From positions 689,731 to 753,730 of the forward strand of contig CBDBUR010000002.1 in assembly GCA_965212115.1 (NCBI GenBank): a DNA stretch of 64,000 nt, given 5' to 3'. The stretch comes from Alphaproteobacteria bacterium. GTDB taxonomy: Bacteria; Pseudomonadota; Alphaproteobacteria; JAPOUT01; G958296285. Of the stretch, positions 36,876-49,088 are shown piece after piece. The first letter of the stretch is position 1; the number at the start of each line of letters is the position of its first letter. The position numbers and the translations under genes are program-made. Below the pieces are notes generated by a model. That model was not told the origin of the DNA and ran no database searches. It saw only the letters and a list, made by a program, of their open reading frames with translations.

Positions 36876-38228
36876 TTGACGCAACTAGCCGACTCATGCG
36901 AGTCTACAGATAAAGCATGGAGGACAATCAACGTGTTCATCTCTAACTTTGCGCCCGACGATCGCTACGGCATCAAAACCAACTATCTCAATATGCGCAA
37001 ACAAACCGTTTTGCTCGCCGCGCCGCTCAGCCCCGAAGACCAAACCATCCAGACCATGCCCGATGTCAGCCCAACAAAATGGCACCTCGCTCATACGAGC
37101 TGGTTCTTTGAAACTTTTATCCTCAAACCCTTTCTGCCCTCCTATGAAGAAAAATCCGCCGCCTATGATTATCTGTTCAATTCCTACTACGAGCAAATCG
37201 GACCAAAATGGCCGCGACCTCAACGCGGATTGCTCTCGCGTCCTTCGGTCAGCGAAATTCAAGATTACCGCCTTTATATCGATCAAAACATGGCCAGCCT
37301 CATCGACAAAACTAGCTCAAAAAATTGGGATCAAATCTCATCTTTGATCCTGCTCGGACTCCATCATGAATGGCAGCATCAAGAATTACTGCTCACCGAT
37401 ATTAAACATGTGATCGCGCATAATCCTATGCGCCCGTCAATCTATTCAAAGGCGGCAGAGGAAAAAATCACGCCTGAACCCTCAAAGTGGATCGCGTTTG
37501 AAGGCGGCATCAAAAAACTCGGACGCAGCGAGCAAGAACGCGATTTCCGCTTCGACAATGAAACCCCCAAACATCAAAAACTCATCCAACCGTTTAAACT
37601 AGCCGAAACACTCGTCACCAATCGCGACTATCTCGACTTTATCGAAGATGGCAGCTATGACGATCCTGCGCTCTGGCTCTCCGATGGCTGGGCGCAAAAA
37701 CAAAATGAACAATGGGCCGCACCACTCTATTGGCGTCAAGACAAAAACCAAGGCTGGATGGAATTCACCCTCAGCGGTGAAGTGCTACTCGACGATCACG
37801 CGCCGGTCGTCCATCTGAGCTATTACGAAGCCGCCGCCTATGCCGCGTGGCAAAACAAGCGACTCCCGCGTGAAGAAGAAATCGAAATTGCCTCAAAGTC
37901 GATGCCGATCAGCGGCAACCTTGGCCGCATGATTAAAAATGACACGGCTCAAGCTGTCCATCCGACCGCCGCAAAAGGCGAAGGCCTGCGCCAAATCTAT
38001 GGCGATGTCTGGGAATGGACCCAAAGCCCCTATATCCCCTATCCAGGCTATCGTGCCGCAAAAAACGCTATCGGCGAATATAATGGCAAATTCATGTGCA
38101 ACCAATTCGTGCTCAAGGGAGGCTCTTGCGCAACTGCCAAAGAACAAGCGCGCCCCAGCTATCGCAACTTCTTCCCGCCCGATGCGCGCTGGCAATTTTC
38201 CGGCCTGCGTCTTGCTGAGGATGGCTGA
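36876..38228 (+). CDS. egtB: Ergothioneine biosynthesis sulfoxide synthase EgtB (DinB_2 + FGE-sulfatase domains)
   Basis: WHLAHTSWFFETF (DinB-like metal-binding region) and C-terminal GDVWEWTQSPYIPYPGY (FGE-like). Adjacent to egtD. True start may be an internal Met (MRKQTVLL). Confidence 0.7.
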   Translation: MTQLADSCESTDKAWRTINVFISNFAPDDRYGIKTNYLNMRKQTVLLAAPLSPEDQTIQTMPDVSPTKWHLAHTSWFFETFILKPFLPSYEEKSAAYDYLFNSYYEQIGPKWPRPQRGLLSRPSVSEIQDYRLYIDQNMASLIDKTSSKNWDQISSLILLGLHHEWQHQELLLTDIKHVIAHNPMRPSIYSKAAEEKITPEPSKWIAFEGGIKKLGRSEQERDFRFDNETPKHQKLIQPFKLAETLVTNRDYLDFIEDGSYDDPALWLSDGWAQKQNEQWAAPLYWRQDKNQGWMEFTLSGEVLLDDHAPVVHLSYYEAAAYAAWQNKRLPREEEIEIASKSMPISGNLGRMIKNDTAQAVHPTAAKGEGLRQIYGDVWEWTQSPYIPYPGYRAAKNAIGEYNGKFMCNQFVLKGGSCATAKEQARPSYRNFFPPDARWQFSGLRLAEDG

Positions 38229-44767: not shown

Positions 44768-44928
44768 CTGACCAACCTTACCCCGCAGCCTCTATCTTGC
44801 CAAATCCCCTCCCCCCACGCCTAGCGTGCGCCTAGCGCCGAGCCGCCCGCCCGACCATATATGCCTAGCCCGCGCCGCGCAGACATGCCTAGTCCGCGCA
44901 GCGTAAATATGATAGTAAAAAGAGGAAG

Positions 44929-45260
44929 GGCGCTGTGGCGGAATTGGTAGACGCGACGGACTTCAAAAGGGGTTGCTCCGGGGGAAACGCCGGAAGTAGA
45001 ACTCGTCAAATTCGGTGAACGCCTCCAGTCCGGCTGAGGCCAACGCCGAGCGAAGCCCCAGCCCGCAAGGGCGGGGAACGTGTAGAGACTAGACGGCGGG
45101 CAGCTAAGTGGCGGCGGTGTATAAGTTTTCACTACCCCATAGGCCGAAGGCATAGTCCAGCGCACAAAGAAGAGGCCTCTCTTCGCGGTGAAAACCGCAG
45201 TGTGATGCAAAATCCGTTGTCCGCAAGGATGTGAGAGTTCGAGTCTCTCCAGCGCCACCA
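44929..45260 (+). tRNA. tRNA-Leu (type II, probable anticodon CAA) interrupted by a ~245-nt group I intron (44963-45207); encoded CCA
   Basis: 5' exon GGCGCTGTGGCGGAATTGGTAGACGCGACGGACT and 3' exon CAAAATCCGT-TGTCCGCAAGGATGTG-GAGAGTTCGAGTCTCTC-CAGCGCC-ACCA together form a complete cloverleaf (acceptor GGCGCUG/CAGCGCC, anticodon stem ACGGA/UCCGU, long variable arm). The insert carries the group I R element (tAGAGACTAGa, 45083-45093) and S element (cATAGTCC, 45151-45158), and ends in G. Confidence 0.75.
44963..45207 (+). ncRNA. Group I self-splicing intron (ORF-less) in the tRNA-Leu anticodon loop
   Basis: Begins after a U of the 5' exon and ends with G (omega-G). R/S elements can form P7 (GACU/AGUC). 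~245 nt, typical of tRNA group I introns. Confidence 0.7.
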
Positions 45261-45307
45261 TTTATGCTATAATAATAAGACAAAGGGAAAAACAGGGAGG
45301 TATCATT

Positions 45308-47098
45308 ATGGGATTGTTGAAAGAAATCCGTTTTGCCATCGACGCGATCGGCATGACCAATGAGCTGAAAAGGCTCAGCGCACAGACCGAAACGACGTTC
45401 ATCACGGAATTTGATAAGGTCATCAAAAAGCATGGCGACAAGCCGCTCCTCATCTTTGAGGGCAAAACCATCACCTATGATGAGTTTGACCGCCGCGCCG
45501 ATGCCTATGCGCATTGGATGAAAGCGCAAAACACAAAGAGAAGCGAAGTCGTCGCTTTGATGATGGAAAATCGTCCGGAATATCTGATGTGCTGGGTCGG
45601 CATTTTGCGCGCAGGCGGCACGGCCGCTTTGATCAACACGCATTTGATCGGCAAGCCGCTTGCTCATTGTCTGAACATATCGGGCGCAAAACATATCATT
45701 CTCGGCACCGAACTGGGCGAGCAATATGCCGGCGCCGCCGATATGCTTGAATTCACGCCAGAGCTCTGGACACAGGAAGGACAGATGCAAGGCTCAAAAA
45801 ATATCGATGAGGCGCTCGAATCTATGCCCAGCGAACGCTTCATCCTGCCGGAAAATCAAAAAATCGATTTTAACGACGATGCGCTCTACATCTATACCAG
45901 CGGCACAACCGGCAACCCTAAAGCCGCGCGCATCTCGCACCGCCGCATGCTGGGCATCATGTCGATTTTCTCCAAAGTCACCAAATCTAAGCCGCATGAC
46001 CGCAATTATATAATCCTGCCGCTCTATCACTCGGCGGGCGGCATGTGCGCCGTCGGTACGACAATGCTCACAGGCGGCGCGATGGTGTTGAAACGCAAAT
46101 TCTCGGTGCGTGATTTCTGGGACGACATATACAAACATGGCATCACACAATTCCAATATATCGGTGAGCTGTGCCGCTATCTCACCACCGCCCCCGTGCA
46201 AGAACACGAACAAGACCATAAACTCGAAAGAATCGTCGGCAATGGCCTGCGGCCGGATATCTGGCCGGAATTCCAAAAGCGCTTCAAAATACCCAAAATT
46301 CTTGAATTTTATGGCGCCACCGAAGGCAATGTGTCATTGATCAATTTCGACGGCCATGTCGGCGCTGTCGGACGCGTCCCCGGATGGGCGCGCTCGCGCT
46401 CCAACCTCGAAATCGCGCAGTTTGACATTGAAAAAGAAGAGCCCGTGCGCAATGAAGAAGGCTTTTGCATCAAATGCGGTCCAGACGAGGTCGGCGAATT
46501 GCTCGGAGAAATCTTCGACGATGACCCCGATAAGCCCTTCGCCCGCTTCGAAGGCTATGTCGGCAAAAAGGAAACACGGAGCAAAATCATGCACGACGTG
46601 TTCAAAAAAGGCGACCGATGGTTCCGCACTGGCGACCTGCTGAAATATGACAAAAAAGGCTATTTCTATTTCATCGACCGCATCGGCGACACATTTCGCT
46701 GGAAGGGCGAAAATGTCGCTACTTCAGAGGTCGCCGAAGTGCTGTCCACCTTTGACGGCATCAGCGATGTCAATGTCTATGGCGTCAATGTCCCCGGCAC
46801 TGATGGCCGCGCCGGCATGGCTTCGCTTGTCGTCGCAGGCGATGTCGACTTCAAAAAGTTCCACGAACATATCTCAAGCCAGCTGCCCGCTTATGCCCGG
46901 CCCGTCTTCCTGCGAATGCAAAAAGAAATGGAAGTCACCGGCACGTTCAAACATCGCAAAGTGGACCTCGTCAAGGATGGGTTTGATCCGGCAAAAATCT
47001 CCGACCCGATCTTGTTCAACAATCCGGAAACAAAGTCTTATGCCCCGCTTGATGGCCCAAGCTATGAAAAAATCATGTCCGGCGGCATGAGACTCTGA
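45308..47098 (+). CDS. Long-chain acyl-CoA synthetase / fatty-acid transport protein-like AMP-binding enzyme
   Basis: AMP-binding signature YIYTSGTTGNPKAARISH. 596 aa, FATP/VLACS-like architecture. Confidence 0.75.
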   Translation: MGLLKEIRFAIDAIGMTNELKRLSAQTETTFITEFDKVIKKHGDKPLLIFEGKTITYDEFDRRADAYAHWMKAQNTKRSEVVALMMENRPEYLMCWVGILRAGGTAALINTHLIGKPLAHCLNISGAKHIILGTELGEQYAGAADMLEFTPELWTQEGQMQGSKNIDEALESMPSERFILPENQKIDFNDDALYIYTSGTTGNPKAARISHRRMLGIMSIFSKVTKSKPHDRNYIILPLYHSAGGMCAVGTTMLTGGAMVLKRKFSVRDFWDDIYKHGITQFQYIGELCRYLTTAPVQEHEQDHKLERIVGNGLRPDIWPEFQKRFKIPKILEFYGATEGNVSLINFDGHVGAVGRVPGWARSRSNLEIAQFDIEKEEPVRNEEGFCIKCGPDEVGELLGEIFDDDPDKPFARFEGYVGKKETRSKIMHDVFKKGDRWFRTGDLLKYDKKGYFYFIDRIGDTFRWKGENVATSEVAEVLSTFDGISDVNVYGVNVPGTDGRAGMASLVVAGDVDFKKFHEHISSQLPAYARPVFLRMQKEMEVTGTFKHRKVDLVKDGFDPAKISDPILFNNPETKSYAPLDGPSYEKIMSGGMRL

Positions 47099-49011: not shown

Positions 49012-49088
49012 TGGTGATCCCGGGAGGATTCGAACCTCCGACCCCCAGATTAGGAATCTGGTGTTCTATCCGACTGAACTACGGGACC
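49012..49088 (-). tRNA. tRNA-Arg (anticodon CCU), CCA encoded
   Basis: Reverse complement GGTCCCGTAGTTCAGTCGGATAGAACACCAGATTCCTAATCTGGGGGTCGGAGGTTCGAATCCTCCCGGGATCACCA. Anticodon loop TTCCTAA. Clean cloverleaf. Confidence 0.85.

Follow-up and report, generated by a model that had tools for sequence, protein, structure and literature searches.

A compact group I intron predicted between U33 and C34 of a tRNA-Leu(CAA) gene in an uncultured alphaproteobacterial lineage

A split tRNA-Leu gene and the fold of its intron

We analyzed a 64,000-nt stretch of DNA from an alphaproteobacterium (GenBank assembly GCA_965212115.1, contig CBDBUR010000002.1, positions 689,731 to 753,730 of the forward strand; hereafter the window), in which a type II tRNA-Leu gene at 44929-45260 on the + strand is split by a 245-nt group I intron (44963-45207). 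The presence of an intron and a split tRNA at these coordinates is far beyond chance. We consider it highly probable that the locus is tRNA-Leu(CAA), that the gene is functional, and that a compact IC3-type ribozyme with no open reading frame (ORF) sits between its U33 and C34. A preliminary description of the window had proposed a group I intron in a tRNA-Leu gene at 44929-45260; this proposal is now backed by exact intron coordinates, an Rfam match of 47.5 bits and a P1-P9 fold that covaries in ten copies.

The 5′ exon (44929-44962, +) comprises the 5′ strand of the acceptor stem, the D arm, the 5′ strand of the anticodon stem, C32 and U33, and reads GGCGCUG UG GCG GAAUUGGUAGA CGC G ACGGA CU. 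The 3′ exon (45208-45260, +) starts with C34 A35 A36 A37 A38 and the 3′ strand of the anticodon stem (CAAAA UCCGU), continues through the variable arm (UCC-GCAA-GGA), the T arm (GAGAG-UUCGAGU-CUCUC) and the 3′ strand of the acceptor stem (CAGCGCC), and is closed by the discriminator A and a genome-encoded CCA. Both exons are colinear in alignment with the intron-less tRNA-Leu(CAA) genes of two other loci, L010 and L252.

Homologues of the downstream acyl-CoA synthetase, from 95% down to 54% identity, led to the contigs with the orthologous loci; long-read metagenome assembly had yielded several of these contigs as circular genomes of 1.6-1.9 Mb. Nine loci of related uncultured alphaproteobacteria (L001-L008 and L012) share the order COQ7 - DsbB/VTT - tRNA - acyl-CoA synthetase, and the tRNA gene carries the same intron in all nine; with the window, these make up the ten copies, or ten orthologues, to which we refer below. 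In every one of them, the 5′ junction reads GGACUUC-(loop)-GGGGUUGC and the 3′ junction reads G/CAAAAUCCGU, where the slash marks the splice site. The preliminary description had put the insert at about 245 nt, following a U and ending in G; it measures 245 nt, is preceded by U, and ends in G45207 (+), the omega-G, which is invariant.

In a covariance search of 501 nt (44850-45350), Rfam Intron_gpI (RF00028), the model that the preliminary description had named, was found at 44954-45172 with 47.5 bits and an E value of 4.5e-11, under its gathering score of 50. The alignment covers P1, P2, P3, P4-P6 and the R and S elements. Orthologous copies scored 67.3, 63.8, 52.9, 47.7, 47.5, 44.8 and 35.5 bits, three of the seven lying above 50. 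At the gathering threshold, Rfam left the intron locus unreported in the whole 64-kb window, where its sole match was tRNA-Arg(CCU); default ARAGORN likewise left it unreported there, and the sole tRNA that it called was tRNA-Arg(CCU) at 49012-49088. This silence is a matter of sensitivity and no sign of absence: from the spliced sequence, ARAGORN calls an 87-nt tRNA-Leu(caa) with the anticodon loop CUCAAAA. We rejected the placement given by the intron option of ARAGORN (tRNA-Leu(caa) with a 250-nt intron at '39-40'), which rests on a chance CAAAA repeat and a wrong 3′ partner and is therefore off by five bases. The repeat, at 44964-44968 and 45208-45212, marks both intron ends in the window copy only, because the P1 loop of this copy happens to be AAAA; the orthologues, whose P1 loops differ, do not have it. 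Since the default tools miss the gene, and the intron mode misplaces its intron, genomes of this lineage will seem to lack tRNA-Leu(CAA).

The model of P1-P9 was written by hand from the Rfam alignment and the known IC3 layout, the five tRNA helices were added, and its 79 pairs were counted on a MAFFT alignment of the ten sequences. Standard pairs occupy 97.3% of the cells, a share that drops to 36-51% if the 3′ partners are displaced by 1-3 columns. Both partners have changed in fourteen pairs (in P2, P3, P5, P6a, P7, P8 and P9b), and none of 500 shuffles reached any of five measures. The folding of the insert into P1-P9, which the preliminary description had put forward as a check, is thus supported by covariation, as is the canonical helix order P3-P4-P5-P6-P7-P8 with its P3/P7 pseudoknot. 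The minimum-free-energy fold of the intron alone recovers P2, P4, P5, P6a/b and a three-way P9 domain. Overall, the fold is compact at 245 nt, with GNRA tetraloops L2 and L9 and without P2.1 or P5abc.

In the P1 hairpin (44960-44974, +), exon ACU and intron UC (44960-44964) pair with the guide GGGGU (44969-44973) around an AAAA loop, with a further G-U pair available between exon G44959 and U44974; neither stem strand varies among the ten orthologues, whereas the loop differs in sequence and length. P2 (44976-44996, +) is capped by the GAAA tetraloop L2 (44984-44987), invariant in the ten copies; its five distal pairs all show double changes, and a G-G mismatch occurs within the helix of the window copy. 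P3 is formed over 6 bp by CUCGUC (45002-45007, +) and GGCGGG (45095-45100, +), as placed in the covariation alignment, with one pair that is U-G, U-A or C-G across orthologues. The next domain (45012-45049, +), which agrees with the Rfam alignment, consists of P4 (45012-45017 with 45044-45049; 100% paired) enclosing P5 (45021-45040; two double-change pairs) through A-rich J4/5 and J5/4, and both helices appear in the minimum-free-energy fold. P6 (GC/GU), P6a and P6b with a GCAA loop follow at 45050-45081 (+), where the Rfam alignment, covariation and the minimum-free-energy fold coincide.

The R-like and S-like elements noted in the preliminary description do pair as P7. Its 5′ strand, G-(A)-GACUA (GAGACUA, 45085-45091, +), is the R element of the G-binding helix with its bulged A, and its 3′ strand, UAGUCC (45153-45158, +), is the S element, according to both the Rfam alignment and covariation; the last P7 pair is A-U in nine sequences and G-C in L012, a compensatory change. 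P8 (45103-45144, +) contains GCUAAG...UA(G)GC, has conserved proximal pairs and one covarying pair, and keeps the motif GCUAAG...UA(N)GC across orthologues, which, by comparison with the Azoarcus intron structure, seems to resemble the 11-nt tetraloop receptor. The P9 domain (45161-45204, +) has a closing stem CGCAC/GUGUG (45161-45165 with 45200-45204; 98% paired), P9a (45169-45184) and P9b (45185-45198; one double change), and is seen in the minimum-free-energy fold; the loop of P9b, L9, is GAAA at 45190-45193 and GAAA or GCAA among orthologues. No + strand ORF, and hence no homing endonuclease ORF, lies within 44963-45207; a length of 245 nt is too short for such an enzyme, and the indels among orthologues are not multiples of three. 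Two minus-strand ORFs, at 44821-45261 and 45104-45790, were rejected as genes in view of the many 1-, 2- and 5-nt indels among orthologues.

The same alignment bears on whether the locus might be a dead relic, a tRNA pseudogene with a decayed intron that is no longer spliced. Such a relic could account for the slightly subthreshold Rfam score of the window copy and for the lack of a homing endonuclease. However, the exons are 90-99% identical throughout the orthologues, and the core is invariant or compensated, although the neighbouring protein is only 54-60% identical; only loops and distal stems vary, a -10-like element and the encoded CCA persist, and the gene occupies the same position in ten of ten genomes. 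Intron identity to the window copy is 98% at 95% neighbour-protein identity, 83-84% at 74% and 70-76% at 54-60%, with L007 as an outlier (84% at 58%). Because intron divergence tracks that of the host, no endonuclease is present and the locus is fixed, we infer vertical inheritance together with purifying selection on both tRNA and ribozyme, which argues against a pseudogene. The preliminary description had also allowed for a pseudogene with a random insertion; conserved exons and a ribozyme core with compensatory changes across ten diverged genomes contradict it, and we regard a dead relic as hardly credible. The pattern indicates that the intron has been passed on vertically in an uncultured alphaproteobacterial lineage with small genomes (1.6-1.9 Mb).

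Splice sites, anticodon and proposed splicing pathway

P1 contains two adjacent U-G wobbles, U44962-G44971 (U33 with G) and U44963-G44970 (the first intron nucleotide, U1, with G), and both are invariant in the ten orthologues. Therefore, the 5′ splice site is not fixed from P1 alone. The site U33/C34 and the anticodon CAA, which the preliminary description had already favoured, are preferred here because three independent lines agree on them: an exhaustive mapping of splice sites, the syntenic intron-less genes and the register of the guide.

The mapping considered every boundary that gives U33, a 7-nt loop, a U or C at -1 and a G at omega, and kept those whose spliced product ARAGORN accepts. 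It returned Leu(caa) with the intron at loop position 2 (33/34) in all ten copies, as the sole solution in nine. In L007, a second ARAGORN-valid mapping (tRNA-SeC, loop position 7) was discounted. The restored tRNA has 87 nt, the 7-nt loop CUCAAAA, U33 and a purine at position 37. Consistent with this, Parvibaculum sp. GCA_002694985.1 (L010) has at this place, divergent from COQ7-DsbB, an intron-less tRNA-Leu(CAA) gene with the loop CUCAAAA, and a second lineage (L252/L254) has an intron-less tRNA-Leu(CAA) with the same loop at the same COQ7-DsbB position. Aligned with the spliced window tRNA, the intron-less syntenic tRNA-Leu(CAA) is colinear and identical at 68 of 86 positions.

The third line, the P1 register, was judged only relative to close relatives of the class Leu.3Ug (introns between U34 and A35 of tRNA-Leu(UAA)), because the number of base pairs from the wobble to the P1 base differs between intron classes: by our reading it is 3 in Azoarcus, 4 in Leu.3Ug and 5 in the tRNA-Leu(UAA) 33/34 intron L048. 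Among 116 sampled relatives with the P3-P4 sequence, the guide is directly followed by GC, that is, the J1/2 G and the first P2 base, in 105. In 104 of these, exon ACUU pairs with the guide GAGU, and the remaining guide reads GGGU. In the window, the four bases before GC are GGUU, which pair with exon GACU. The same guide positions thus address the exon one base further 5′, so that the homologous wobble G is G44971, paired with U44962 (U33).

Taken together, these lines place the predicted intron at 44963-45207, with the 5′ splice site after U33, G45207 as omega-G and C45208 as C34, and make tRNA-Leu(CAA) the expected product. The predicted junction of the ligated exons reads ...GGACU/CAAAAUCC... 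The insertion between U34 and A35 that marks a classical Leu(UAA) intron is absent, as it would need an intron ending in C; neither does the gene have the C at -1, the C-G pair in P1 and the 34/35 site of the class Leu.3Cg, having U at -1 and site 33/34.

A classical reading could still be sought, in which the gene is tRNA-Leu(UAA) split at 34/35, with a 5′ exon ending in ...CUU, a 3′ exon starting with AAAA and an intron ending in C (45208). The exon flanks ACGGACUU and AAAAUCCGU are indeed the same as in classical tRNA-Leu(UAA) intron genes, such as that of the Bradyrhizobium plasmid L256; Leu(UAA) 34/35 introns are the nearest relatives among the matches listed; and U44963, the equivalent of U34, is likewise wobble-paired with G in P1. 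However, this reading needs a non-G omega, and the ten orthologues all keep G followed by C, whereas all 84 junction-resolved metagenome relatives among the matches listed read G/AAAA with no C between. Since the syntenic intron-less genes are CAA rather than UAA, and the guide register points to U33, we find the UAA reading barely conceivable.

The tandem wobbles could alternatively permit two 5′ splice sites, with a minor product with an 8-nt loop (CUUCAAAA) beside the normal tRNA. The invariance of both wobbles in the ten orthologues would fit this idea, as would the single wobble of the two sampled tRNA-Leu(UAA) 33/34 introns (L048 and L085). Nevertheless, a tRNA with an 8-nt loop would be a frameshift hazard, G44970 may be kept because a 1-bp P10 can form between it and C34 in the 3′ exon, and the guide register favours a single site. 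Dual-site splicing is therefore very improbable, and we retain the single site after U33.

Under this reading, transcription would yield a precursor of about 332 nt, in which the intron would fold into P1-P9 and the last exon bases (G)ACU would pair with the guide GGU(U). The U33-G wobble (U44962-G44971) would thereby be set in the active site, and an exogenous guanosine bound in P7 would attack after U33. The omega-G (45207) would next take the place of that guanosine in the P7 site, and the freed 3′-OH of U33 would attack after the omega-G and join C34, giving the 87-nt tRNA with the loop CUCAAAA. The 3′ exon is probably positioned with the help of the anticodon stem, as it is in other pre-tRNA introns.

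Several points weigh against the reading of the locus as a functional, self-splicing gene cut after U33. In addition to the adjacent wobbles in P1, P10 comprises at most one base pair (C34-G44970), and the window copy falls slightly under the Rfam gathering score. Moreover, splicing, its catalytic steps and protein-free self-splicing are predictions from established group I chemistry, such as that of Azoarcus pre-tRNA-Ile (PMC13168695), and our inventory of tRNA-Leu genes covers the examined loci rather than the whole genome. It is conceivable, if unlikely, that the intron is a genuine 33/34 group I intron that is not fully autocatalytic and needs a host protein cofactor in vivo. Some group I introns are protein-dependent, and the minimal P10 and the G-G mismatch in P2 of the window copy would be in keeping with such help. 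In contrast, both fold-stabilising tetraloops and the receptor-like motif are present, and related compact tRNA introns of Azoarcus and Anabaena/Nostoc self-splice efficiently in vitro (PMC13168695, PMC13011429).

Promoter region, neighbouring genes and host

Upstream of the split gene, the hexamer TATGAT (44908-44913, +), read from the sequence 15 nt before the tRNA 5′ end, is a putative -10-like promoter element. TATGAT or TATAAT also occurs 10-15 nt upstream of the tRNA gene in the orthologues L001, L002, L004 and L008. A promoter consensus scan did not report the hexamer at 44908-44913, there being no -35 match. Just upstream of this region lies a direct repeat, ATGCCTAGYCCGCGC, at 44861-44875 and 44885-44899, with more CCTAGCG motifs nearby at 44820-44838; the repeat is missing in the closest orthologue, L001. 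Downstream, the gene at 45308-47098 encodes the AMP-binding acyl-CoA synthetase. Between the tRNA and this gene, the loci L005 (2571-2990) and L006 (2451-2990) carry about 430-540 nt of G/C homopolymer runs and inverted repeats (GGGGGGUCAAGGGGGGCUAGCCCCCCUUG...), a stretch that is rearranged between these otherwise near-identical loci.

Named proteins, from Parvibaculales, Rhodobiaceae and 'Alphaproteobacteria bacterium', share no more than 58% identity with the isoleucyl-tRNA synthetase of the window. Genes for SctV, SctC and SctN of type III secretion and for an 893-aa protein also lie in the window (4156-6264, 13806-15449, 15932-17488 and 25205-27886, respectively; all -). The C-terminus of the 893-aa protein matches a SopB/IpgD-type inositol phosphate phosphatase effector model with 163.9 bits, below the cut-off of 615. 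The type III genes and the phosphatase-like protein, together with the circular genomes of 1.6-1.9 Mb of the relatives, suggest a host-associated alphaproteobacterium. An EgtB (ergothioneine biosynthesis) equivalog, with 536 bits, lies at 36876-38228 (+) in this otherwise reduced-looking genome. tRNA-Arg(CCU) is a classical host of group I introns in Alphaproteobacteria; the tRNA-Arg(CCU) gene of the window (49012-49088, -) is intron-less, as are those of L001-L003, L007, L008 and L012. Strand asymmetry is strong and uniform over the whole window (1-64000), with negative GC skew in every 2-kb bin (-0.06 to -0.39) and mostly positive AT skew.

Relationship to known tRNA introns

We scanned the P7 18-mer GUGUAGAGACURGACGGC against GTDB species genomes and obtained at least 119 loci from many phyla, most of them intron-split tRNAs. 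Among the matches listed, the hosts are mostly CAU-anticodon tRNAs with introns at 33/34 and 36/37, Leu(UAA) at 34/35 and Arg(UCU/CCU) at 36/37; two Leu(UAA) genes are split at 33/34, L048 from a Thiotrichales metagenome-assembled genome (MAG) and L085 from a gammaproteobacterial MAG. No other Leu(CAA) host, and none from the clade of the intron itself, is among these matches. A P3-P4 24-mer scanned against metagenome contigs gave at least 120 contigs, nearly all with tRNA-Leu(UAA) 34/35 introns, so that the nearest relatives among the matches listed, Leu(UAA) 34/35 introns with 72-77% core identity, come from a sample biased towards that class. Related introns also occur on plasmids of Bradyrhizobium, Acinetobacter, Aeromonas, Klebsiella and Mycetohabitans, and the two that were read are classical Leu(UAA) 34/35 introns; a phage collection gave no match to the intron. 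Eight introns retrieved with the 24-mer lie outside tRNA-Leu (L141, L167, L190 and L228 from marine metagenome contigs, and L172, L235, L236 and L248). Their guide is GGGUUGC (GGGUUAC in L172), like that of the window, and their upstream flanks read ...GUUCGAACCUAU... or ...AUGAUUUUCAAAAAU...; tmRNA T-loops are one possible host.

The intron is a member of the compact IC3-type tRNA intron family, which occurs in many bacterial phyla. It most probably originated from the widespread tRNA-Leu(UAA) 34/35 introns, with the guide re-registered by one nucleotide. One survey distinguishes 21 classes of intron-split bacterial tRNA, among them Leu.3Cg and the four classical ones, Leu.3Ug, Arg.5Ug, fMet.2Ug and Ile2.5Ug (bioRxiv 10.1101/2020.01.27.920355), and another counts 333 tRNA group I introns in 4,934 complete genomes (PMC13011429); introns have been reported at nearly every position of the anticodon loop (both sources). 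A full-text literature search, whose coverage does not extend to the published class tables, returned nothing relevant on a Leu(CAA) 33/34 intron in bacteria. The ribozyme is of an ordinary and well-understood kind, which leaves our understanding of how group I introns work unchanged; it is the combination of isoacceptor and site that we did not find described in the literature searched.

Tentatively, we suggest a fuller account, which is possible although we would not call it probable. Leu(CAA) 33/34 would be a previously undescribed class, in which a UAA 34/35 intron moved to a CAA gene and slid both splice sites by one nucleotide (guide GAGU to GGUU), and it would reside in the sole tRNA-Leu(CAA) gene of a reduced-genome lineage with type III secretion. 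If the gene is indeed the only one, splicing would be essential in that lineage. The slide, if it took place, would differ from the C(-1) solution of Leu.3Cg in preserving the canonical U-G wobble. Whatever its origin, the intron provides a vertically inherited, lineage-datable example of an endonuclease-free group I intron in a streamlined genome.

Leu.3Ug introns, known from cyanobacteria, plastids and many other bacteria, have the most in common with the window intron: a tRNA-Leu host, the anticodon stem ACGGA/UCCGU, a compact IC-type architecture, the P3-J3/4-P4 sequence GUAGAACNCGUCAAAUUCGG and the P7 core. They lie between U34 and A35 of UAA, with exon ACUU and guide GAGU, whereas the window intron would lie between U33 and C34 of CAA, with GACU and GGUU; both splice sites are thus shifted by one base 5′ on the tRNA. 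Set beside these abundant introns, the window intron would illustrate how moving the guide by one base can direct a ribozyme to the adjacent phosphodiester. The gammaproteobacterial Leu(UAA) introns L048 and L085 share with the window the tRNA-Leu host, the 33/34 site, U at -1 and G at omega; however, their anticodon is UAA, their P1 has a single wobble, their guide is GGGUCC without a J1/2 linker, and they are not among the closest sequence relatives.

The Azoarcus tRNA-Ile(CAU) intron (Ile2.5Ug), the structural model for IC3, is also small and ORF-less and also lies in the anticodon loop of a proteobacterial tRNA; its sequence and tetraloop-receptor contacts were reportedly described by Adams et al. 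in 2004. The window intron has GAAA tetraloops L2 and L9, as in Azoarcus, and the P7 18-mer common to many of the CAU-anticodon tRNA introns retrieved. In contrast, the Azoarcus intron follows position 36 (loop position 5) of tRNA-Ile2, and its 205 nt, which self-splice (PMC13168695), compare with 245 nt here, the window intron having an extra P9a hairpin and a longer P8.

The tRNA-fMet(CAU) 33/34 introns (fMet.2Ug) of cyanobacteria and others occupy the same site, with a nearly identical local target (CU/CA), in a different tRNA. CAU-anticodon tRNAs with 33/34 introns and the same P7 core are the commonest class among the genome matches listed. According to PMC13011429, some fMet introns carry PD-(D/E)XK homing endonucleases; the window intron has none and is closer in sequence to Leu(UAA) introns, towards which the sampling is biased. 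The preliminary description had called the insertion site unusual, which holds for tRNA-Leu; it does not hold for bacterial tRNA introns generally, since 33/34 is the classical site in tRNA-fMet and is used by L048 and L085.

Finally, the class Leu.3Cg comprises 72 proteobacterial tRNA-Leu introns with C at -1 (Williams 2020, bioRxiv 10.1101/2020.01.27.920355). A C at -1 in loop position 3 would imply the loop CUC/AAAA and hence, by our reading of a text that gives no anticodon, CAA. Leu.3Cg introns have a Watson-Crick C-G pair at a 34/35 splice site, whereas the window intron would use the canonical U-G wobble at 33/34. The two therefore look like different solutions to hosting an intron in the CAA isoacceptor, and the window intron can be set, as a naturally occurring contrast, against the C(-1) introns reported from proteobacterial tRNA-Leu.

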